From assembly GCF_006345805.1 (NCBI RefSeq), contig NC_042997.1, positions 85,312,001 through 85,376,000 on the forward strand: 64,000 nucleotides of DNA, read 5' to 3'. The stretch is from Octopus sinensis. Lineage: Eukaryota. The notes below the pieces were generated by a model. The model saw only the letters and a program-made list of their open reading frames with translations, made no database searches and was not told where the DNA came from. Shown one piece after another: positions 4,181 to 62,744 of the stretch. The first letter of the stretch is position 1; every line of letters begins with the position of its first letter. A program made the translations under genes and the position numbers.

Positions 4181-5275
4181 TCGGGTCGGGTAGGGGAGAG
4201 TAGGGGGCAGCGAGCGTGTAAAAAGAAAAAAATATTTAAAAAAAAAGAGGACCGAGGGAGTAATAAAATAAATTTGGCGGTGAAAAATAACGAGAACGCG
4301 AACGTCGTGGTTATGGCGGTGCTGGTGCTGGGGGTACTGGGAGTGCTGGAGATGAGGCTGGAGGTGGTGCTGGAGGTGGTAATGGTAGTGGTGGTGATGG
4401 TGCTGGTGCTGGTGGGGGTGGTCGGGTGGTGGTGGTCGGGTGGAGCTGGTGGTGATCGGATGGCATTGCTCGTGCTGGTGTGATGGTGCTTGTATTGGTG
4501 ATGTAGGGGGTTCGAATCTTGGTGGTGGTGGTGGTGGTGGTGGTCTCGCTAGTAGTTGTTTCACCTACCCGTTTTCCCATTCCACTTTCACCCACCCCCC
4601 TAACGCCACTGATTCCGAGATGAGAACTAACACGTGGATAAAGAGGGGAGGGGTAAGAATTAAAGTAAACCCCCACCACTAATACTACTACTACTGCTGC
4701 TGCTACTACTACTACTACTACTACTACAAATGTACTACTACTGCTGTTGGCGTTATTGATGCTTCTACTACTACTACTACTACTACTACAAATGTACTAA
4801 TCACTACGCAGGCACAAGATCAGAGGCTTGATGGGGCCCGACAGTCGATTAAACAGACTTTATTAAAACAAACTGTTACAATATTATATTGATCTTAGAG
4901 TGATAATAGTCACCTTTTATTTACCATAAGAGCGTCACAACATCAGTGGTAAGAAACTCTCAAGAGAGCTGAAGAGCAGACGATTTCAAGAGACGAACCC
5001 TTCATCCCCATTCCCCACCCTCCAGCCGCCATGCAAGTGTTTCGGCCCTTAACTTCTTACACGCTAACGGGGCCGAGCTGCATCCACATCACGATTCTTG
5101 ATTAAAATCAAGATACTCTTGGCCTGAAGAGTAGCTTGCGGTATACACCGCGCTTGGATATTTATCACTTCCAAGGTTCCACTCGCTATGAAACATATGT
5201 AGCCCGTATTTTATCTACTCCATTCCTTAACTCTTGTGTGTGTGTGTGTGTGGTGTGTGTGGTGTGTGTGTGTGT

Positions 5276-5334
<59 letters not shown>

Positions 5335-5835
5335 CGTTTCTAACATTGATCATCCAAGGCTACAAATCATTCGGAAAGGTGTTACGTGCTTTTAACCGAA
5401 TCAAGTCCATTTCAAAATCTGTATTGAATCTATATTTATGCAAAAGAGAAAGCGAACATAGTAAGGTTTGAACATCAGAAATTTGCAGCCATTGGCAGAA
5501 CGGTGGACTAGATACTTTCATTTTTTAGTTCCGACTATTTACATTCCTTTAGTTTGTTGTTATTGATGTTATTGTTTATTTAACCCAAGGTCAACTACAA
5601 ATGTGCAGTTGTCCTATGATCAAAAACATTCTCAGAGTGGCCGTCCATCCCACTTTTTCCTGTATGGAGGAAACCCAGGAGCAGATGATGTAGTGAGTCA
5701 TTTCCTAAAGTATAGGTGTTGCTTACGTCATAAGAATTTAGAAAATTCGAAGAACTACATTCTTATGAGGTAAACAATACACGCGAGCACATGAGAGACG
5801 CACACATTTATCTATCTATCTATCTATCTATCTAT

Positions 5836-7418
5836 CTGGGGTCTGGTTTGGTCCGGACCTCCAAGTGGAGAAGAACTGGAACGAGATAACGAGTAGGGTG
5901 GTCACTCTCGCTCGGCAATGGGCCGAGAGGAAACTGTCCCTAAAAGGTCGAGCGGAGGTGGCGAACACGTACATCGCGTCCGTCATCTACTACCGCCTGA
6001 CCGTCGTACCTTGTCCCGACCCTACCATCACCAAACTACAACGCATCCTCTTTCGCTTCTTGTGGAAAGGATGCGTCCCGATGGTCAGGCGATCCATTTG
6101 CTGTCAACACCCGTTAAAAGGAGGGCTGGGCATGCCGTGGTTGATGATGCGCAGACACGCGCTGAGACTGCGACATCTCTGGCTCTATGTAGACGACGGT
6201 GAACAGGTGTGGTCGCCGTTGTGAGGCACGCTTTCCCGCAGCTCGTCTCCATGACCGAACTGCAGTCGTGGATCAAAAAGAGGCCGAGGAAGGGCGAATG
6301 GCACCGCGAGTGTCGCGTTGCTCTCAAGCAACTCTGCCGTCCTGGGTCGACCTTAAGTGACTTCAACACAACCAAAGCATTCTATAGGGGTTTAGTGGAG
6401 GGGAGGTACGACGACGAGCTCGGAGCGAACCTGGACGTCGACGAGGAGTACCTGACCCGCCTGTTCGGGACGACTTCGGGCCAGGGCCCATGGACAACTT
6501 CCAGAGATCCCTGGCCTGGCAGTGCTACCGAGAAGCGCTACCCGTTCGGGATAAGCTCTATAGACACGGCTCGAGAAACACGGGGCCGACCTGCCCGAGA
6601 TGCGGTCAGAGCGACGAAACCGTTCTGCACGCACTCGTTCAGTGTCCAACAATTTCCGACCTGTGGGCTTATGTCGAACAACTGCTGTCACGTGTGGGAC
6701 GAGTCGGTTTATCAGCTGAGTCTATCGTCAATATTGTCACGCCTCCTTCCTTCAAACGGGAAGGAAGAGCTATTTTCATCATCCTTGTGGCTATGGCGAA
6801 AGAATGTATCTGGTGGACGCGTCTGAAAGGATTGGAGACAAACACTTTCTCTCTGGTCAATCTCTCATCAACTTCTTCAAGTACCACTTGAAAAGGAAAG
6901 TGAGAGTAGAGAGGCAAGTTTTGTCTAGCGAATGTTTTAAAAAAGATGGGTGAATGTAGCAAGAATGGCACGTATGAATGACGAAGCCACCTTGAGCATA
7001 GTCCTATGAACCCAGAAATCGAAAACAGAGAGTTGCTTATTTGCAAAAAAAAAAAAAAAAAAAAAAAAAGAAATATAAAATGTGACTTCATTGACCGAGG
7101 TTACCGTGGTCTTTTCCGCAGGCTTTTCTTTCCACGGGTAAACCTCACCTGTCCTCCCCTTTACACTTCATATTGACATTTCTGTGATAACGATCCCTAT
7201 TGATCATTTTTTTTTCCTCTCCCCCCCCTTTTTTTAATTTTTTTTTTTATTTAACCCCCCTTATTTTTGTCCTCTTTCTCTCCTTTTACGATCCCTTTTG
7301 ATCGAACCTCCCCCTTCCTTTTTTTTTTTTTTTTTTTTTTTTAATACCTTCAAAAAAAAAGCTCTACCTTGTAATTTGTTCTATCTGTGTGCAGCCCTGT
7401 GTGGCTAATAAAGAAACA
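5836..7418 (+). mobile_element. 5'-truncated Tx1/L1-clade non-LTR retrotransposon (post-RT region, zf-RVT, 3' UTR)
   Basis: GVWFG...WAERKLSLKGRAEVAN...FLWKG...GGLGMP and the CCHC motif TCPRCGQSDETVLHALVQCP across frameshifted ORFs 5865-6224, 6209-, 6490-. 3' UTR with AATAAA at 7407. (TCTA)n on both sides. Confidence 0.9.
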
Positions 7419-47389: not shown

Positions 47390-47720
47390 TTCTTTTAATT
47401 GTTTCAGTCATTTGACTCTAGGACGTATTCTTTGTAGGCTTAGTCACTTATCCTATCGGTCGCTTTTGCCGAACCACTAAGTTATGGAGACGTAAACACA
47501 CCAGCATCGGTTGTCAAGCGATGTTGGGGAAACATATACATACGTATATATATATACATATACATATATACAACGAGCTTCTTTCAGTTTCCGTCTACCA
47601 AATCCACTTACAAGGCTTTGGTGGGCCCGCGTCTATAGTAGAAGACACTTGCCCAAGGTGCCATGGAACCATGTGGTTGGTAAGCAAACTACTTTCCACA
47701 CAGCCACTCCTACGCCTATA
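47390..47720 (-). mobile_element. SINE family B
   Basis: Collinear with 56985-57455. Confidence 0.8.
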
Positions 47721-47767
47721 CACACACACACACAATATATATATATAATATATATATTATATATATA

Positions 47768-47840
<73 letters not shown>

Positions 47841-47869
47841 GCCTATATATACATATATATATATATCTG

Positions 47870-48348
47870 GCTGTTGACCGGAGTGCTACTAAAACTTTCT
47901 TTCAGCTCGTGCTTTCAACAAGCATACATCGACTTCTCTGTCTTTCGCAAGCCGATTTTTCACATGCGTTCTAACTAATTTTTCCACCGTCTAGGCCTAA
48001 AAAAAGCCCTTATTGTTGGTTTCCTTGTCCTGTTATTCATTATTTGTACTGTTTTTTCTTCATTTGTATTGTTTTTACGTCCTGTTCTTGTCACTTGTTT
48101 TACCCCTCTGCAAAAGAATTTTATTTAATTCCTTTTGCAGGAAGGATTGTTTCGGCCAGGCCGTGTTCTGCCCTTACCTTCGAAACACGCATTGAGTCGA
48201 ACCAGGGGCAGCTGATGAAGGGGAATTTTCCTTGTATTGTTTGTCCTGTACTCTGTTTTTTCGTTGTTAAAAAAAGTCCGTTTCCTTGTTTGATTTTATG
48301 TTTTCGTTTCTCGTTGTGTTCTACCTTTATTTGTGGTGTCCTGTACTC

Positions 48349-48352
<4 letters not shown>
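47870..48352 (+). mobile_element. Dispersed repeat in (TA)n, possibly a PLE-like tail
   Basis: cgaaacacgc...ctgatgaagggg...gtcctgtactcatata resembles 55961-56135 and, weakly, 7820-7945. Confidence 0.4.
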
Positions 48353-48428
<76 letters not shown>

Positions 48429-48554
48429 ATATACATATAGATGTAAGAATGTACATATATGTATGTATATATGCATATGTTTTATTTATTTATTATATTG
48501 TTATTATATGACCGAACGCACGCGTTGTTTCTCTTCTCTAAGTAAGTTTTTATT

Positions 48555-48649
<95 letters not shown>

Positions 48650-48874
48650 TATATATATTATGTGAAATAGAAAGATGAATAATCTTGTAGTAGATTAATC
48701 AAAAGTTTAACCGATACCTTAGTAGCAAAAATCACAGCAGTGAACAGCACGGTTGGAGGTACAACCATCTGGCGTTGCAACCGTGCGTTGGTGCGGATAA
48801 TTGAAATTAAAACATTATTGGTGAATTGAAGAAATGGAGCTGAACGCAGATTGAACAGAAATCGTTTTATTTCA

Positions 48875-48954
48875 TTCTACACGTGTTTCGAAAGGCACAA
48901 ATTACCAAAATCCGATTGAATAATGGGACCATATTGTGTCTTTCTCTTCAGGAA
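48875..48954 (-). ncRNA. Mirror copy of the hammerhead ribozyme
   Basis: Exact reverse complement of 49647-49726. Confidence 0.75.
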
Positions 48955-49646
48955 GAAAAAAGGAAATCCGTTGGAAAAACAAAAACAGAACAGAGGCAGA
49001 GCAAAAAACAAATCGAACTGTGCTCCTAAGAGCCCATGGCGAAACTGTTTATCAGTGTATGTTGAGAACCGGTGGCTGAAGAATTCAACAGGTCAGGCAT
49101 CGGTCAACCATGTGGGTGAGGGTGTATAGATGTTCTTTGTGACCGATAATAAAGTTCTGACTATTTAAAGAATATTGGATGTTTTATAAGGGGCGAGAAA
49201 AAATCTACTTAGAGACGTGTGTGTGTGTATACTGTTCTATATATGTGTGTGTTGGCGTAGGGGTAGAAAACATTTTTTGTGTACGTGTGTGCGTTTGATC
49301 GATCAAACGCACACACGTACACAAAAAATGTTTTCTACCCCTACGCCAACACACACATATATAGAACAGTATACACACACACACGTCTCTAAGTAGATTT
49401 TTTCTCGCCCCTTATAAAACATCCAATATTCTTTAAATAGTCAGAACTTTATTATCGGTCACAAAGAACATCTATACACCCTCACCCACATGGTTGACCG
49501 ATGCCTGACCTGTTGAATTCTTCAGCCACCGGTTCTCAACATACACTGATAAACAGTTTCGCCATGGGCTCTTAGGAGCACAGTTCGATTTGTTTTTTGC
49601 TCTGCCTCTGTTCTGTTTTTGTTTTTCCAACGGATTTCCTTTTTTC

Positions 49647-49726
49647 TTCCTGAAGAGAAAGACACAATATGGTCCCATTATTCAATCGGATTTTGGTAAT
49701 TTGTGCCTTTCGAAACACGTGTAGAA
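49647..49726 (+). ncRNA. Type I hammerhead ribozyme (PLE-type)
   Basis: TTC-CTGAAGA-[gaaagacacaa/ttgtgcctttc stem II, 10 of 11 pairs]-GAAA-CACGTG-TA-GAA. Intact core, palindromic stem III (ACACGTGT), GUA cleavage triplet ending at 49723, 3-bp stem I. Confidence 0.75.
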
Positions 49727-49780
49727 TGAAATAAAACGATTTCTGTTCAATCTGCGTTCAGCTCCATTTCTTCAATTCAC

Positions 49781-49833
<53 letters not shown>

Positions 49834-49913
49834 ACATATATACATACATAAGTATATATATATATATAAGTGGAGTTTAATTGTTAACAAGGGAAAATAC
49901 ACACATATATATA

Positions 49914-50429
49914 ACGTAAATTCTCGAGTATAGTCCGCCCTTGAGTATAATACGCAGGGGATTTTTAGGGAGCTGTACATCTGAAAAATCTAAACCTTGT
50001 GTATAATACGCACCCCTTCTCTAACTTGAGTCGTGCGTAATTAAGCCAGCAGCACCTAGTCGAACAAACACTTCCGCGCATGCATAATACAATAATGGTG
50101 ATGTTCTCAACTGTTATATGGGAATGTAAATGTTTGCAAATTGTTTTTGTTACATGATATTCTGTTTTCTGAATACTTTTATTTTAATAAATGTTGCTTA
50201 CTGTAAGTTATGGATGATTCTTTTATGACTTCATTGCTTTCAGGCTAAACTTATGGTATTTTCGCGTCCATCACAAAATGCGTCTGAATAAACATTATCG
50301 GACTGCAAATAGAGACTCGGATATTGCTTAGAAAATGTTTTTCATTTTTAACCTCGTATATAGTACGCACTAGGGATTTTGACCTTTAAATTTTGGGAAA
50401 AAATGCGGATTATACACGAGGATTTACGG
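49914..50429. mobile_element. pogo/Tc2-type MITE
   Basis: TA|ACGTAAATTCTCGAGTATAGTCCGC ... GCGGATTATACACGAGGATTTACGG|TA, with subterminal gtataatacgca repeats. Confidence 0.8.
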
Positions 50430-51134
50430 TATATATAAATAGATAATTAAAAAGGAATGTAAAAATACATTACGAAGGATATATCATAAACAAGGATTAA
50501 TTATCAATGAATATATCAATGGCCAAACATGAAATAATAAATTACATAAAAGAAGAGCATTTATAATTATGAATAAATCACAATTATAACGAAGAGGGTT
50601 GCAAAAACCCTTATACGTTTAGAAATAGCAGTCAGAAACCACAATAAAGCCACTTCTATCACTCACATTTTATCTCCTCACAATAAAGCTGTCTGCGAGC
50701 GACATGACATATAAAATCCACAGTTTAAAAATAAAAAGTTAATTTTTGTAGCGGACTGGATGAAAGATGTGATATCAGGTCAATATGATATAGTCCACTA
50801 CTGAATGTAGCGTGTAAAGATTCTCGCGTCGGAGTACCAATTAACATCGAAAAATCAACACCAAAAAGGAAGAAATATTATTTACATATGTTTATTCGTT
50901 TGCTCGACAGGTAGTTAAAAAGACAGTAGCAATTCTAGAGATAGTGACAACATCGATGACTCGCTGGTTAGTAGTTGATAGCGTAGAAAATGTTGTGTGT
51001 CAGTAGAGAGGGAAAAAGTTAGGAATGCACGGTGCTGACTAGGAAGGAAGTAAGGATAGAGGTGGTATCGTCTTTCTCGCGGCCGAGGAAAGTGCTGCTC
51101 TTGGTCATAGCTGACACAAAAAAGCGTGTTGCTC

Positions 51135-51980
51135 TAGTACCTTCGGTCGAGAATTACTGGCAGTGTATCTCGCCGTCAAGCATTTTTGACACATGCTGGA
51201 AGGTCGCGTTTTCTCCATTTATACAACCATAAACCGCTGTTTTATGCCTTCAACGCCAATCCCGATCGTCACTCACCCAGGGAAGTCCGACATCTAGACT
51301 GTGTTGACAGATTTTCTTGCTGGCCGGAAGCTTTTCCCCTATCGGACACTTCTGCGAAAACTGTAGCCAAAACGCTAGTGTCTCACTGGGTTTCGCGTTT
51401 CGGCACACCCGCAACGATCACCACCGACAGAGGACGACCGTTCGATTCCCATCTTTTCACCGAGCTGACTCGTCTCCTCGGGTGTAAACACACCCGCACA
51501 ACAGCTTACCACTCCGCAGCAAATGGCATGGTTGAACGCTTTCACCGCCAACTCAATGCGGCTATAAAAGCATATCTAGACTGTTCCAACTGGTTGGAAT
51601 ATCTCCCTCTCATCCTCCTTGGTATTCAATCTATGGTTAAGGAAGGAGTTGGGCATACTCCGGCTGAATTGGTTTATGGCACGGCATTCGCCTTACCTGG
51701 GCAGATGATCGACCCTGTTTCACCACAAGACTTTCCGGACCCAGCAAAATATGTTCACCGCTTACGGACATCCATGTCGCATTTGTCCCCTGCAGGCTCC
51801 ATACAACACAACATCGCTTCACATGTCCCAAAAGACATCAATACTTGGACACATGTTTTCGTTAGAAATAATGGAATACATTCTCAACTTCGGTCACCAT
51901 ATTCAAAAAGAACCAATATATTTCGTTCTCGATATTGGAGGAAAACAAAATACTGTCTCTGTTGATCGCTTAAAAAAAAG
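51135..51980 (+). pseudogene. Ty3/Gypsy pol remnant (RNase H fused to integrase core)
   Basis: STFGRELLAVYLAVKHF*HMLEG...HKPL...RHLD, then CVDRFSCWPEA...ITTDRG...TTAYHSAANGMVERFHRQL...TVSVDRLK. Confidence 0.92.
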
Positions 51981-52930
51981 CATTCGTCGAAGAGGACTTA
52001 CTTTCAGTTCCCGCAGTTCCTCAAACGGACTCATCAACTTCACCTTCACCCATCGCAAACACCTCAGATTCTGCAGAACTCCGGCACACCAAATCACGAA
52101 GAACAGTTCGATGGCCCACAAGGTTTGTTCAAGTCTTTCGAGCAAGTACAAACATTTCACTTACTCATCTTCTCAATTATAATGTCCACAATACCCACAT
52201 CAGCAAATAAAAACAAATATTTTTTTTTCTTATGGTTATGAACAATTTACACATACATAACCCAAGTGACTCTGCATCACTCGCATACAAACCAAAAGAA
52301 AACAAAGAACATTTTGTATATATAAAAAAAACATTTTTCTATATCAACGAAAATCATTTTTTATGGACATTTTTCTGCTAATTGAACTGACTGAACATTT
52401 CACCAAACGAACTTTTTCCATGAACATTTTCATTTTTCTGTAAAATTAGATTTCCTTGCATGTACATATGTTTTGCTTTGTTTTAAAAATGATTTGCTCT
52501 CTACATCACACCTGTATGCTTACACACACTTTCACCACTCATATTTTAACGTGTGCTATCACTTGCTCTCCGCGTCACTGAAAAGCAACTTACTTGTATT
52601 AGACCTCTAGTGGCTCGCGTAATCAATAGAATTGCATATCTCCTTCAACGCGCTAGCATATTACATTTATGCTTCTGCCTACGTATATACACATTGCCTA
52701 ACATATTGCACACACCAACTCTGAACGTCGATTTTTTGCTTTCCATTTGTTTTATTTTCCATTTCTTTCACTTCCCATGTTTTTTACATGTATTCATTTG
52801 TCTGTAAATTAAACTGTATTCATTTTTCTGCATTACACACAAAATCACACATTTTCAATATCACACGCATCTGTATCGTGTGATATTGTGGCTTTCTCAC
52901 TAGAATCTCTGTGGCTTTCTCACTAGAACT

Positions 52931-53638: not shown

Positions 53639-54020
53639 CTGTATCTTAAAATAACAGAAATAAACAATATAACAATTCCATTCTTCTCATCAGAAGAATA
53701 TTCCTATAGATACAAACTGATACAAAATCATGCCTTGGGGCTTACATGCATTTTTACATTCCTTTTTAATTATTTAATTTTCTCACTCATATCCGGTATT
53801 TTGCTGTGGCTCGATTTACCGGTCTTTTCTCATAAACGCTGTGCATGACGTTGGAATTCAGACTTTGAATGTATAGAGGTTGACACATTATTCTTGTCAG
53901 TCGGGATACATGTAAGTCCCAAGGTATGGTTTTGTATCAATGTGTATCTATAGGAACATTCTCCTGGAGAGAAGAATGGAACTGTTATATTGTTTATATC
54001 CGTTATTATTTACGATACGG
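53639..54020. mobile_element. MITE with long (about 110 bp) TIRs
   Basis: 53639-53750 is the imperfect reverse complement of 53908-54020; TA|CYGTAT termini. Confidence 0.75.
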
Positions 54021-54262: not shown

Positions 54263-55647
54263 GGTGTCCCCCAAAAATGTATGCACACTTTAAACAATTG
54301 TAAAGTAGTTGTTTATTAAAAGACACTTCATTCAACGATGTGTAGAAGCTGCACACTTTCCAACAAAGATTGTGTGGAGTGATGAAGGCACATTCAAATT
54401 AAATGGTTCAATTAACTGCCACAATTGCACCTACTGGGGGCCTGAGAATCTACATGTTATGGTGAAACACTTCATTCTCAAAATTTAATAGAATCTACAG
54501 ACATTATTTTATCGTTTTGTCAATGCCTGTTTTCAAACTGATATCCGGTCTGGTCCAGGCACTGCTGACAACGCAAAGGAATGGAATTACAAGTATCACA
54601 AAAGAATTTGTTTGGTATTTGTGTGCACTCTCGTCCAATGGCTGCTCTCAAATCAGCGACTTGTATGTTTCATAGCGTAGAATTTGTCTTTAAGGTATCC
54701 CCATAAAAAAGTCTAGTGGTGTGAGGTCTGGTGAATTCAACCATACCTCTTCATCCAATCCACCTGTTTAGCAAGATCTCATCAAGGAAGGATCTAACAT
54801 AGCAATGGTAGTGTGGGGGTGCCCCATCTTGCTGAAAATAAAACTCCTCATCTTCAAAGTCTTCGCTAATGTTTGGCATAACAGACTGTTGCAATAAGTT
54901 CAAGTAAACGGACCAGTCACATTAGCATAACAAAAGAATGGTCCAATTAATCCTCTTGATAATAAACCACACCACACAAATATCAAATTAACATGGTGTT
55001 TCACCATAACATGCAGATTCTCAGGACCCCAGTAGGTGCAATTATGGCAGTTAATTGAACCATTTAATTTGAATGTGGCTTCATCACTCCACACAATCTT
55101 TGTTGGAAAGTGTGCAGCTTCTACACATCGTTCCAAGTACCACTCGCAATGCTGCACTCTTTCGTCTGGATCATCGTCATTAATAGCATGGACTAATCTT
55201 GGAATGTAACTTTTCCATTGACAATGCTTCAAAATGCATTGGACAGATGATTTTGGAATACCTACCTCATGACTCGCTTTGCCGCACAGATTTTCTTGGA
55301 CTTTGGTGATTCATTTCCAGTACTCCTTGCTTTGTTGGGGCTGTTGATGTTCGGGTTCTTCTGGAATGCTTATCGTGGACATTCTGAACAGTTCCATCAG
55401 CTTCAAACTTATCTCTAATTCAAGTGATAGGGAGTTGCATTGGTGGATCTGTTTGAAACTCCCTCCCCAACTGTTTTTGCACTTCAACTGCATTTTCACA
55501 CTTCCAGTATCATTTTAGAATGAATTTTCTTTGTTCAAAGCTTAATCTGACTGCCATCATTAAATCCTATAGGTTTCATCTGGAAAGAAAAAATATCAAT
55601 TGAGTTATCAGCTGCTAAAGTGTGTATACATTTTTTGGGACACTCTG
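54260..55647 (-). mobile_element. Full-length but decayed Tc1/mariner element, DD41D-type
   Basis: TIRs CAGGGTGTCCCCCAAAAATGTATGCACACTTTA / TAAAGTGTGTATACATTTTTTGGGACACTCTG in (TA)n. Motifs [16 protein letters not shown] and SPDLTPLDFF; spacing is 41 if the deleted xPPR is restored. Confidence 0.9.
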
Positions 55648-59179: not shown

Positions 59180-62100
59180 GTTAATTTGTCTTTGCGAGAA
59201 TTTGGTTAGTAATGGTTATTATTATTTATTGTTATTGTTGCCATTTATTGTTAAATTTTGAACTTATGTTATTGTCCAACGTTCTGTTTTGACAGACGTA
59301 GTGGACTGTTGTTCTCCTCCGTAAGGAGGGGAAAATAATTTTTGAAATAATTTTTGGAAAAAATATTTTTGAAAATATTTATTTTTGTGAAAATGAATTC
59401 GGAGGACAAGCCTTCTAAACGTGACCAAGCTAACCAAAGAGCAACTGCAAAACAAGACAAAATGAACGAAAATGTGAACGAAAGGCATATAAATGCAGTA
59501 AACGGGAAAATGAACCAAGAAGGAAAAATAAATGCTGAAAACGATAAAATGAATAACGGAAAAGTAAACCCAACAGAAGACAATCAAAAGAAGATTAATT
59601 TTGCCACTGCAGCCGGTGTGAGAAAAGGTAAATTGCACATAGAGCTAGATTCACTGCGGCAACACAGAGGTATTTTCGAAAGGGAAGATTTTGACGTTAA
59701 AGCCACCCTCCCTAACGAACTCATCGAAGAGGAAAATAATAACATATAAGACAATGATAATAAGAGACAAGAAAATAAGAAGGCATCCAAAGAACAAATT
59801 GAGAAGTGTCTATAACCCATCTGGCAAGACAAAGAGTTCTTGACCAGAGGGAGAAGATACGCCATAGTAGTGGTGTACTTCAAAAATGAGAAAAAGGTTA
59901 TTAAACACTCGCTCCAACCGATAAAAACCAATGAAGTCATTTTATTACCAACTTATATGGGTAGGAGAACAAGGAAATATTGAGGAAATCCCACCAGAAA
60001 TAAATGTCATTTGGATTATCTCAGCCCTTCTAATAGGGCTTGAGGATAAAATCAAGATGATTGAAGCTTCCAGAATACAACAACAGAACTGGTGGGCCGA
60101 GGGCTTGAGATCATAATCCAAGCCCCCCCCCCCACACACACACACCAGACATTAGCAGGAATTGCTGAGAACATCCAGATCGGAGGAGAAACCACCTTGC
60201 GGGTAATGGTGGAAGGCAGGAAACCCAGATGCTACGAATGTGGCGAAAAAGGCCACATTCGGGTAAACTGCCCCGCCCGCAAGGAGAAAAAGAGGAAAAA
60301 AAGAACAAAGCCAAAAGACCGACCAGCAGAACCCCGGTCCTGATAGTGTTCAACAAGCCGGAGAAAAAGACGGCTGGTCGGCAGTAAGAACCAAAAAAAA
60401 GGAAAGATAATAACAACAACCAACCCAACCCTACAACAACCAAAAGAAAAACTCAGAACACTCAAAGAAAAATTACCCCACACCACCACTATTCCCCCCA
60501 AAAGCCAACAATATCAGATTCTCCCCATCCTATTCCCCTCTCGGCGATGAGTCCCCCTTGCCCCTCTAGTTCGGATTTCTCCCCTCTCCCAGACATCACC
60601 CCTCACCCGCCAAGCCCAGGTAATCTGTCCCCGATATCAAGTCCAAGAAAATCTAACGAATATAAGGAAATACTGACTGCAATAAACAATGGTAACGAAC
60701 AATTAAAGAAAACGTTAAAGCAAATACCAACGGTGTCACCATAAGACTCCAGAAAATATTGCCATTTATAAAATAGATATAACATCTTAAAAAACCACCA
60801 CCCAACTGACATGGGTCCTCCAAGACTTGATTTTAACAAGTCGATGTATGAGGACCTATGTCAGAATATCACCCACGAACCAGTGAAAAAGAGAGTACCA
60901 CTGACTAAGTTAAGTCCATGTCAAGCATTCACGTTGGATGTATAAATGTGCGTGGCTTGACGTCTAGCTGGAAGCAAGGACGCCTCCTAAATGACGTCAG
61001 GTCACGGGATTTAGATGTTGTTGCTACAGAAACCCGGTTGAAGGGGCCAAGAGATCTGTTCCCGCTGTTTGATGGTTACGAGAGTTTCGTCTCTCTGTGC
61101 TGCCCTCATAGCAGGAGCGGGGTGTTGGTCCTATTAAAAGAAACCAGGATTTTGAGAAAAAGTTGATTTTTGCAGATCCAGAAGGTAGGCTGGTCATCAT
61201 TGACTTGACGTTCAGCCGTTGTAAGACTATCAGACTGGTTGCAATTTATGCACCTCAAGATATGGGGCAAACTGAGTATTATCAGAACCTAGAGATGTTT
61301 CTTGGCACATAACATCCCTTAGTTGTGCTAGGAGACTAACTGCTAGGAGACTAATCTACGCGTGCATCTGCGATGCACGCGTAGATTATGTAGGCTCGTG
61401 TGTTAATAGAAGTAATGCTTGCTTCCAGGATCTACTAAGACGTTTTGAGCTGGTAGATCCATACAGACTGGAATTTCCGAATGCTCCATTGTGGGCATGG
61501 GCAAATAGGGACGGATCTTCCAGGTCTTATCTAGATAGAGTATTAATAAGAAAAGTAGATAAGAATATAGCTAGGTTCCACAGTTTCACATGGTCAGCTA
61601 CAGTGATCACAAGATGGTCAACTGTAAGCTCGACATAGATAAGTTATATAGAGGTCCCGGCTACCGGAAACTTAATACGTCCCTTTTGCGATTAAGGAGT
61701 ACAGAGACCGGATTAAGATGTTAATTCAGAGGGCATTAATCGGATCCATTATTAGCAACAAATGGTGGTACGCCTTCAAGCGAGCCATTAAATATGAGTC
61801 CATTTGATATAGCATAGGTTTAGTGGCTAGAGAGGCTAGAAGGGAATCAGCTCTAGTTAAGGCCTTAGAGGAAGCAATGCGAACTGGCTCTGTGGCTCAG
61901 GAGAGGGCCAAGAGACTGGTGTTGAACCAGCACCTCGAAGCCAAACACATGGGTTGCATTTTCAGGGCTAGACAACGTGCAATGGGTTGTGAAGGAATCA
62001 ATGCTGCGGGATGGGCCGGAGTGGAAGAAGCCCAACGTGGAAACCATGTCACAATTTGATCTTTGACGAACCAGCAAGGGAAGTTGATAGACGAACCTGA

Positions 62101-62650
62101 GGAGATGTGTGAGGTCTTTCAGGACCACTTCGCCCAGCTTTTCGGGGGGGGGGGCTGAGTGTAGGAAGGACGTAACGGAATTCCTTGCCGGGCTGCCGTG
62201 TCCCTCGGAGCAGGATGCGAGTTGTAGTGAGGGGCCGATCACGTCTGAGGAGGTAAAAGAGACAATGGAAGACTGCGACGCGGGTAAAGCGCCAGGGCTG
62301 GATGGTCTACTCTACGAGCTGTATAAGAGCATGCTGGACTAGTTCGGACACCTATTGGTGAGTGTCTACGCGAACAGGCAACAAATTGGACTCATCCCCA
62401 GACCTTTACGCCGAGGAGTGTTGACGCTCGTCAGAAAGGACCCGAACAACGGGGATGTCATTGATAATTTTCGGCCCATCACTCTGCTCAACGCAGAGCT
62501 GAAGATTTTGGCTAAAGTGTTATCGAAAAGATTGGCGCGTGTCGCGGATGGGTTGATCGGAGGAGCACAGACACGTGCCATCCTCGGCAGATCCATTCAG
62601 GATAATCTCCATCTTATACGATACACTACAGAGGGAATAAATAACGATTC
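59180..62650 (+). mobile_element. 3'-truncated Tx1/L1-clade LINE (ORF1 with zinc knuckle; ORF2 APE and RT N-part), inactivated
   Basis: ORF1 from the ATG at 59393 with CYECGEKGHIRVNC. ORF2 from 60918: CINVRGL..ETRL, SDHK, KAPGLDGL, NFRPITLLNAELKILAKVL, GRSIQDNL. Many stops and frameshifts. Confidence 0.92.
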
Positions 62651-62744
62651 CATCACTCAATACTCATATAACATTGTGTTGTGGACCATACATATATTGA
62701 GTTCTACACCAGGTTATTAGTCTCACTATGTCTAAGCGATATAT

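Follow-up and report, generated by a model that had tools for sequence, protein, structure and literature searches.

A head-to-head palindrome in the Octopus sinensis genome as a likely twin-primed insertion of a Hydra-like Penelope element

A 974-bp palindrome in the genome of Octopus sinensis is best read as one young insertion of a Penelope-like element (PLE) with Hydra-clade motifs, in which two 5'-truncated 3' ends lie head to head in a (TA)n tract, likely as a result of twin priming. We assign this reading a probability of about 0.7. The palindrome lies in a 64,000-nt stretch of contig NC_042997.1, referred to here as the window and numbered from its first letter. The locus is a real, young and ordinary product of a known retrotransposon class, and its architecture is the normal one for its family.

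Structure of the locus

An inverted-repeat comparison gave two arms of 487 nt (48814-49300 and 49301-49787) that are 100% complementary and have 0 nt between them, as expected from the first-pass annotation, which had described a perfect, spacerless palindrome of this length. The right arm stops at the (TA)n tract at 49787, and the left arm runs on for 153 nt (48813-48661) before it meets (TA)n after 48661, in agreement with the extension of about 150 bp that had been noted for one arm. Both arms consist of element 3' UTR/pLTR with a hammerhead; one ends at a short 3' site, denoted S, and the other at a tailed site, denoted T. The long arm still matches the native element for ≈5 nt beyond the (TA)n boundary, as far as 48656, and the short arm stops 6 nt short of where S ends of the family most often fall. 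The features of the locus are as follows:

48552..48660, no strand: (TA)n target, left part
48661..49300, minus strand: long, "tailed" (T-end) arm, 640 nt, the 5'-truncated 3' end of a Penelope-like element
48661..48807, minus strand: tail between the short and long 3' ends, about 150 nt, with a predicted hairpin and a 36-codon frame
48870..48958, minus strand: mirror copy of the hammerhead motif, with its core starting at 48951
49300..49301, no strand: head-to-head junction, a 2-nt self-complementary CG overlap of native CGATC
49301..49787, plus strand: short (S-end) arm, 487 nt
49555..49563, plus strand: site where 5' ends pile up in other copies (13/96 arm 5' ends within 4 nt, C|AGTTTCG), with its mirror at 49046 on the minus strand
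49643..49731, plus strand: type-I hammerhead motif, predicted from its boxes and from pairing by hand
49788..49868, no strand: (TA)n target, right part

The centre of the palindrome reads GATCGATC because the arms overlap by 2 nt, the CG common to both, within the native sequence AAC-GATC-AAA. Upstream of this GATC the native element continues in the other 29 of 30 fetched loci, for at least 11 nt and usually much further; the centre of the window palindrome is therefore a truncation point. The first-pass annotation had cautioned that such a centre is also the signature of a DpnII/MboI ligation, and a ligation junction of this kind, or a fold-back read, could in principle have doubled a single PLE fragment. 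The central GATCGATC, the zero spacer and the 0 differences between the arms would all fit such an artefact, as would the finding that none of the listed contigs from four runs on 48661-49340 bridges the centre (contigs drop short fold-back paths). However, the two ends of the insertion differ in the way typical of the family, and the flanks lack mirror symmetry: no BLAST match was found between the unique flanks outside the (TA)n tracts. The central 24-mer occurs at one other genomic position (G000:C14:29371730), in an insertion (L118; G000:C14:29368700-29374800) that has different flanks, 5 differences in the short arm and a 135-nt tandem duplication inside the tailed arm. Furthermore, exact fold-backs at three other loci (L037, L098 and L112), with 2-nt AT or CG overlaps, are centred where the element has no GATC, the one at L098 only 4 nt from the centre in the window. 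Short-end/(TA)n junctions (48808-48814) are also present in contigs of three public runs. The caution thus holds for the appearance of the centre and for the lack of a bridging contig among those listed, while the CG overlap, the match on C14 and the GATC-free fold-backs tell against it. An artefact is unlikely, and we put its probability very low, although assembly polishing or gene conversion may have inflated the shared variants and the 100% identity of the arms. An A/G difference at 49090 was considered as a trace of editing and dropped, since it is present in a DNA-type run too. At least 75% of the sampled words of the stretch were found in 19 listed runs under seven organism codes (20 in total, from 10 studies), which suggests that near-identical copies of the stretch exist under more than one species label.

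On the plus strand, the hammerhead boxes are CUGAAGA (49650-49656) and GAAA (at 49712). Stem II has 11 bp with one A-C mismatch, stem I has 7 bp with one bulge, and stem III is the self-complementary ACACGUGU (49715-49722), an 8-bp self-duplex of -10.3 kcal/mol. It is followed by a GUA with a predicted cut after 49723. The earlier view of two apparently intact hammerheads is borne out by these boxes and hand-paired stems, but not by the model searches or by the predicted fold. At gathering score, the Rfam search of the window returned zero families of any kind, hammerheads included, and the list at E ≤ 10 for 47400-51000 held no hammerhead family but mostly miRNA-type hairpin models, all below cut-off; those over the palindrome centre are driven by the palindrome itself. 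The minimum free energy (MFE) fold of 110 nt has stem II and lacks the active core (z = -0.27). By analogy, the palindromic stem III suggests a dimer-dependent, weak cleavage activity, such as is reported for metazoan PLE hammerheads in the available text of PMC4209133.

Since the arms meet at their 5' ends, the hammerheads point outward; they are likely passengers of the insertion. Hammerhead cleavage was rejected as the source of the arm 5' ends, just 1-2 of 96 of which lie near the cut, in a sample biased toward hammerhead-containing arms. The putative internal starts also face outward, so transcription would have to enter from beyond the insertion to yield a 487-bp dsRNA. Antisense frames of 68 and 39 codons in the arms were treated as chance.

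The window holds several other repeats. A high-copy repeat at 47870-48345 (4,220 candidates, of which 40 were scored at 92-100%) lies between (TA)n tracts, often has short inverted partners and contains GAAAC...GTC and CTGATGA boxes in permuted order with an unconvincing stem I. It may be the terminal part of a different PLE family; six loci of this type showed nothing similar to the parent protein described below. By eye, 51138-52182 holds a frame resembling a retroviral-type integrase core (GPD/FTT-like, with D..D..E spacing) that is probably a fragment of an LTR retrotransposon, 54900-55310 on the minus strand resembles a fragment of a Tc1/mariner-type transposase, and 61276-62720 on the plus strand resembles a LINE endonuclease/RT fragment. 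A second, imperfect inverted repeat (53657-54000) has 95-nt arms, 87% complementary and 154 nt apart.

The parent element and its protein

When the long arm was searched against its own genome, 1,672 candidates were found, and all 40 that were scored were 99-100% identical over 638-640 of 640 nt; the arm sequence is thus not a product of chance. A 28-mer from the hammerhead had 3,152 exact matches genome-wide and 0 control matches. Past the long end, 3 of the 30 fetched loci run into a coding region, 77 exact tail-to-ORF junctions were found, and tandem copies are spaced 3.63-3.64 kb apart, giving a parent unit of 3.63 kb. One locus, L032, carries an uninterrupted frame of 895 aa with RT and GIY-YIG domains (ORF 4212-6896), and was the sole one among 12 long loci checked to have all three marker motifs in one frame; the breaks at the others may stem from decay or from assembly error. 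This is the autonomous element that the first-pass annotation had proposed to seek with an arm. Its suggestion of a very young, non-coding, PLE-derived insertion is likewise supported, the arms being the 3' end of an RT + GIY-YIG element and 99.4-100% identical to its other copies. In the tail, a frame of 36 codons (48768-48661 on the minus strand; 4056-4166 in L032) precedes the main ORF of L032 by ≈45 nt, and its stop codon coincides with the tailed end.

The parent protein had no match in Pfam, and the Pfam GIY-YIG family gave a weak match in 1 of 15 aligned members, but 2,540 protein relatives were found at E ≤ 1e-10. The predicted structure of the L032 protein (mean pLDDT 75) had telomerase RTs (TERTs) as its best Foldseek matches, and the GIY-YIG domain (NAVYQCKV..YIGAS) has a conserved R, E and N aligned to those of its relatives. 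The element accordingly displays the traits of an endonuclease-bearing (EN+) PLE: a single ORF with a telomerase-related RT, a GIY-YIG endonuclease, a partial-tandem pLTR, an inverted 5'-truncated copy, an optional tail, and a hammerhead in the pLTR, the last recognized from its motif and stems. Two long Ser/Asn-rich inserts (residues ≈486-559 and 632-764) have pLDDT < 50.

Hydra-clade motifs are also present, namely RWL (of the RWK type), DKT in place of DKG, a C-terminal EN without CCHH, and CNLC..E..N..CPH, with its CxxC and CxH. The preference of this clade for (TA)n is seen in 120 of 126 3' ends, which adjoin (TA)4 in the 70-locus sample described below. The CxCX5C linker, in contrast, is replaced by SGCRSRNEY or close variants, with a single cysteine, in 50/50 copies; a CxC-x5-9-CP pattern is kept in 47 of the 60 relatives that reach the EN. 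Because of this linker, we regard the element as a Hydra-like variant rather than a textbook member of the clade. From its sequence, the parent is apparently an undescribed Hydra-like family, set apart by eye from Hydra-1_Obim as given in the text of fig. S7.

Paired 3' ends and a twin-priming model

We sampled 70 consecutive loci from the first 85 Mb of C1, corresponding to all 100 listed matches of the 3,152 to the hammerhead 28-mer; the sample therefore represents one part of one chromosome and requires the exact 28-mer in at least one arm. The 3' ends fall at two sites. S corresponds to 48808 on the left arm, with a spread of 0 to -14 nt, and T lies ≈150 nt further; by eye, both share a similar ending context, TTC-ATT-CAC-ATAAT. 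Across the plus strand of the genome, S/(TA)n junctions gave 838 matches and T/(TA)n junctions 1,314. Among the 70 loci, 56 are head to head, 0 are tail to tail and 14 have a single arm, two of these with a 10-12-nt inverted S stub seen by eye. The head-to-head loci comprise 52 of the short + tailed type, two short + short, none tailed + tailed, and two with end types unscored. A mixed pair is thus found in 52 of 54, which for independent ends has P = 8e-14.

The 5' ends of the arms lie anywhere from within the tail to the full length of the element, without defining a unit of constant size. Their pile-up at C|AGTTTCG likely marks a transcription start or an RT stop. Of the 49 two-arm loci, 23 have an S arm that extends further 5' than the T arm and 14 show the reverse, and in the remaining 12 the stops are within 10 nt of each other. 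Such coincident stops (12/49) compare with 3.05 expected and were reached in 0 of 20,000 permutations; outside the hotspot there are 6/40 compared to 1.57 expected (P = 0.002). In nine loci the T arm is wholly inside the tail and the arms do not overlap. The tailed arms of five loci (L067, L070, L076, L078 and L089) start at about +59 to +64, immediately 3' of the predicted tail hairpin, possibly at an RT stop on a structured or protein-bound site. Variants were compared in the 50 loci whose arms overlap by 80 nt or more, with positional and identity-selected loci pooled. In the 33 of these that are not fold-backs, 133 minority letters are common to both arms, compared with 15 family sites at which the arms disagree, and the window arms share three minority letters with 0 differences. 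Junction microhomology of 2-4 nt was seen in 14/48 (16% expected by chance), which is weak evidence, and 28/48 junctions scored as insertions, many from differences to the yardstick copy.

We considered the possibility that the second arm is copied from the first, through fold-back of a cDNA or antisense RNA, with nuclease resolution of the hairpin at staggered sites to yield short and tailed ends. Self-priming has been proposed for inverted pLTRs (PMC3846280, in its available text), and PMC8557442 speaks of "EN-mediated resolution". This snap-back model accounts for the excess of exact fold-backs (12/49), the identical arms and the self-complementary 2-nt centres, and it fits the junction in the window; for an exact fold-back like this one, taken alone, it fits equally well. 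However, a snap-back copy cannot outreach its template, yet the short arm extends further 5' in 23/49 loci while the other arm has the tail. In about half of the loci neither arm could have been copied from the other, since the S arm is longer on the 5' side and the tail is present only on the T arm. With nine loci lacking any overlap as well, self-priming would need a second mechanism for approximately half of the loci. We consider it unlikely as the general explanation, and twin priming, with two start sites on the same RNA, fits better.

In the twin-priming model, the GIY-YIG nuclease would nick both strands of the self-complementary (TA)n target, and each 3'-OH would anneal to one of the two AUAAU-containing sites on the element RNA and prime cDNA synthesis. 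Both cDNAs would pass the uncleaved hammerhead and then stop, and their 3' ends would anneal and be filled in. If the stop points were equal, annealing could occur only via a tiny self-complementary word, leading to a spacerless palindrome. Most likely, a single RNA serves as the template for two RT subunits in tandem; this would explain why the end types pair in a fixed way, why the arms share variants and why their stops coincide. For two arms copied from the same RNA to overlap, strand displacement would presumably be required. Alternatively, an asymmetric complex may contain two RNAs from the same locus; the shared variants fit one or two RNAs alike.

A stronger version, to which we give slightly less than an even chance, is that the family integrates by obligate two-site twin priming, with one RNA and two tandem RTs, each primed by one (TA)n end. 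If so, each insertion would have a short end on one side and a tailed end on the other, and its arms would make a perfect palindrome whenever the trailing RT stops where the leading RT did. One mechanism would then serve for PLE tails, inverted pLTRs and junction palindromes. (TA)n targeting would be independent of the Zn-finger linker, and this genome would contain hundreds of long, perfect, hairpin-forming loci.

The insertion might instead represent a separate non-autonomous element of the retrozyme or MITE kind, mobile as a palindromic unit, or a selected dsRNA/ribozyme device. It is non-coding, it carries two hammerheads, and its centre recurs once elsewhere. However, 5' ends that range from inside the tail to full length do not describe a fixed unit, the C14 copy has other variants and an internal duplication and is no daughter of the window copy, and tandem monomers are absent. 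No head-to-tail hammerhead arrays were found within the window, and the retrozyme-like label of the first-pass annotation is further contradicted by the 5' ends that vary from locus to locus and by copies continuous into the ORF. This reading is largely refuted, and we consider it the remotest of all.

Inverted 5'-truncated copies, one-sided tails and (TA)n targeting have been described before (PMC8557442), as have junction palindromes (PMC3846280) and pairs of hammerheads on opposite strands 100-700 bp apart (PMC4209133), the last two as given in the available text of those papers. The formation of PLE tails and inverted repeats was named as open by Craig et al. 2021 (PMC8557442), and a young, high-copy family provides statistics on this question. 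The new part is the rule that the family follows, with short + tailed pairing in 52/54 and a head-to-head arrangement in 56/70; a literature search, with subscription papers and bioRxiv supplements outside its range, found no paper stating, in its available text, either S + T end pairing or twin priming in PLEs. Taken together, the way the ends pair, the variants common to both arms and the excess of coincident 5' stops yield a model that can be tested and that ties the two start sites observed in vitro to genomic structure. The loss of the CxCX5C linker with (TA)n targeting kept casts doubt on the role proposed for that linker. A rough extrapolation, a lower bound from exact matches, puts the number of inverted insertions in the genome at ≈1,750 and that of near-perfect palindromes at a few hundred; these are possible sources of dsRNA and trouble spots for assembly.

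Comparison with known systems

In LINE-1 twin priming, both target ends prime on the RNA and microhomology joins the cDNAs into an inversion. The second primer lands at variable sites, giving segments without overlap. The model proposed here shares the priming from both target ends and the joining by microhomology; it differs in having a constant second site and arms that overlap in most cases, which leads to inverted repeats.

Hydra-clade PLEs, which include Hydra-1_Obim, have units generally <3 kb (Craig et al. 2021, PMC8557442). The octopus family resembles them in its C-terminal GIY-YIG, DKT, RW-x motif, GLYRDD and lack of CCHH, in the CxxC and CxH around a conserved E and N, and in the hammerhead near the 3' end, the (TA)n targets and the inverted 5'-truncated copies. 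It differs in its longer unit (3.63 kb), in the two low-complexity inserts (486-559 and 632-764), and in the reduction of the linker CxCX5C to one cysteine in 50/50 copies with (TA)n targeting still present. It appears distinct from Hydra-1_Obim because the N-terminal protein sequence and the hammerhead differ when compared by eye. Recently active Penelope families are described in an octopus genome in the available text of PMC13282606.

Among other PLEs, a close parallel is Penelope of Adineta vaga, for which the accessible part of PMC3846280 describes head-to-head inverted copies, junction palindromes, an optional one-sided tail and asparagine-rich ORF inserts, comparable to the Ser/Asn-rich inserts of L032. 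That account explains few copies by self-priming, whereas the octopus family was counted over 70 loci and has arm lengths beyond what self-priming alone gives. The paired min-HHRs in the available text of PMC4209133, with hammerheads 100-700 bp apart on opposite strands, are also similar. Non-LTR retrozymes, as presented in the available text of bioRxiv 10.64898/2026.07.22.740005, share the type-I hammerhead, the PLE origin and the non-coding character, but form head-to-tail tandem units, whereas the window insertion consists of head-to-head truncated copies from an autonomous family.

The Poseidon PLE of Anolis (PAc; Frangieh et al. 2024, PMC11167929) offers the biochemical counterpart. In the available text of that paper, the purified protein cuts and extends both strands in vitro, with two RNA start sites bounding the tail, no need for hammerhead cleavage, and a predicted dimer. 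The two 3' ends around a tail, the AT-rich target and, on the model proposed here, a cDNA that runs through an uncleaved hammerhead are common to both systems. The PAc tail is 30-40 nt, compared to ≈150 nt upstream of the main ORF in the octopus family, and that text does not state that each insertion strictly combines a short end with a tailed one.
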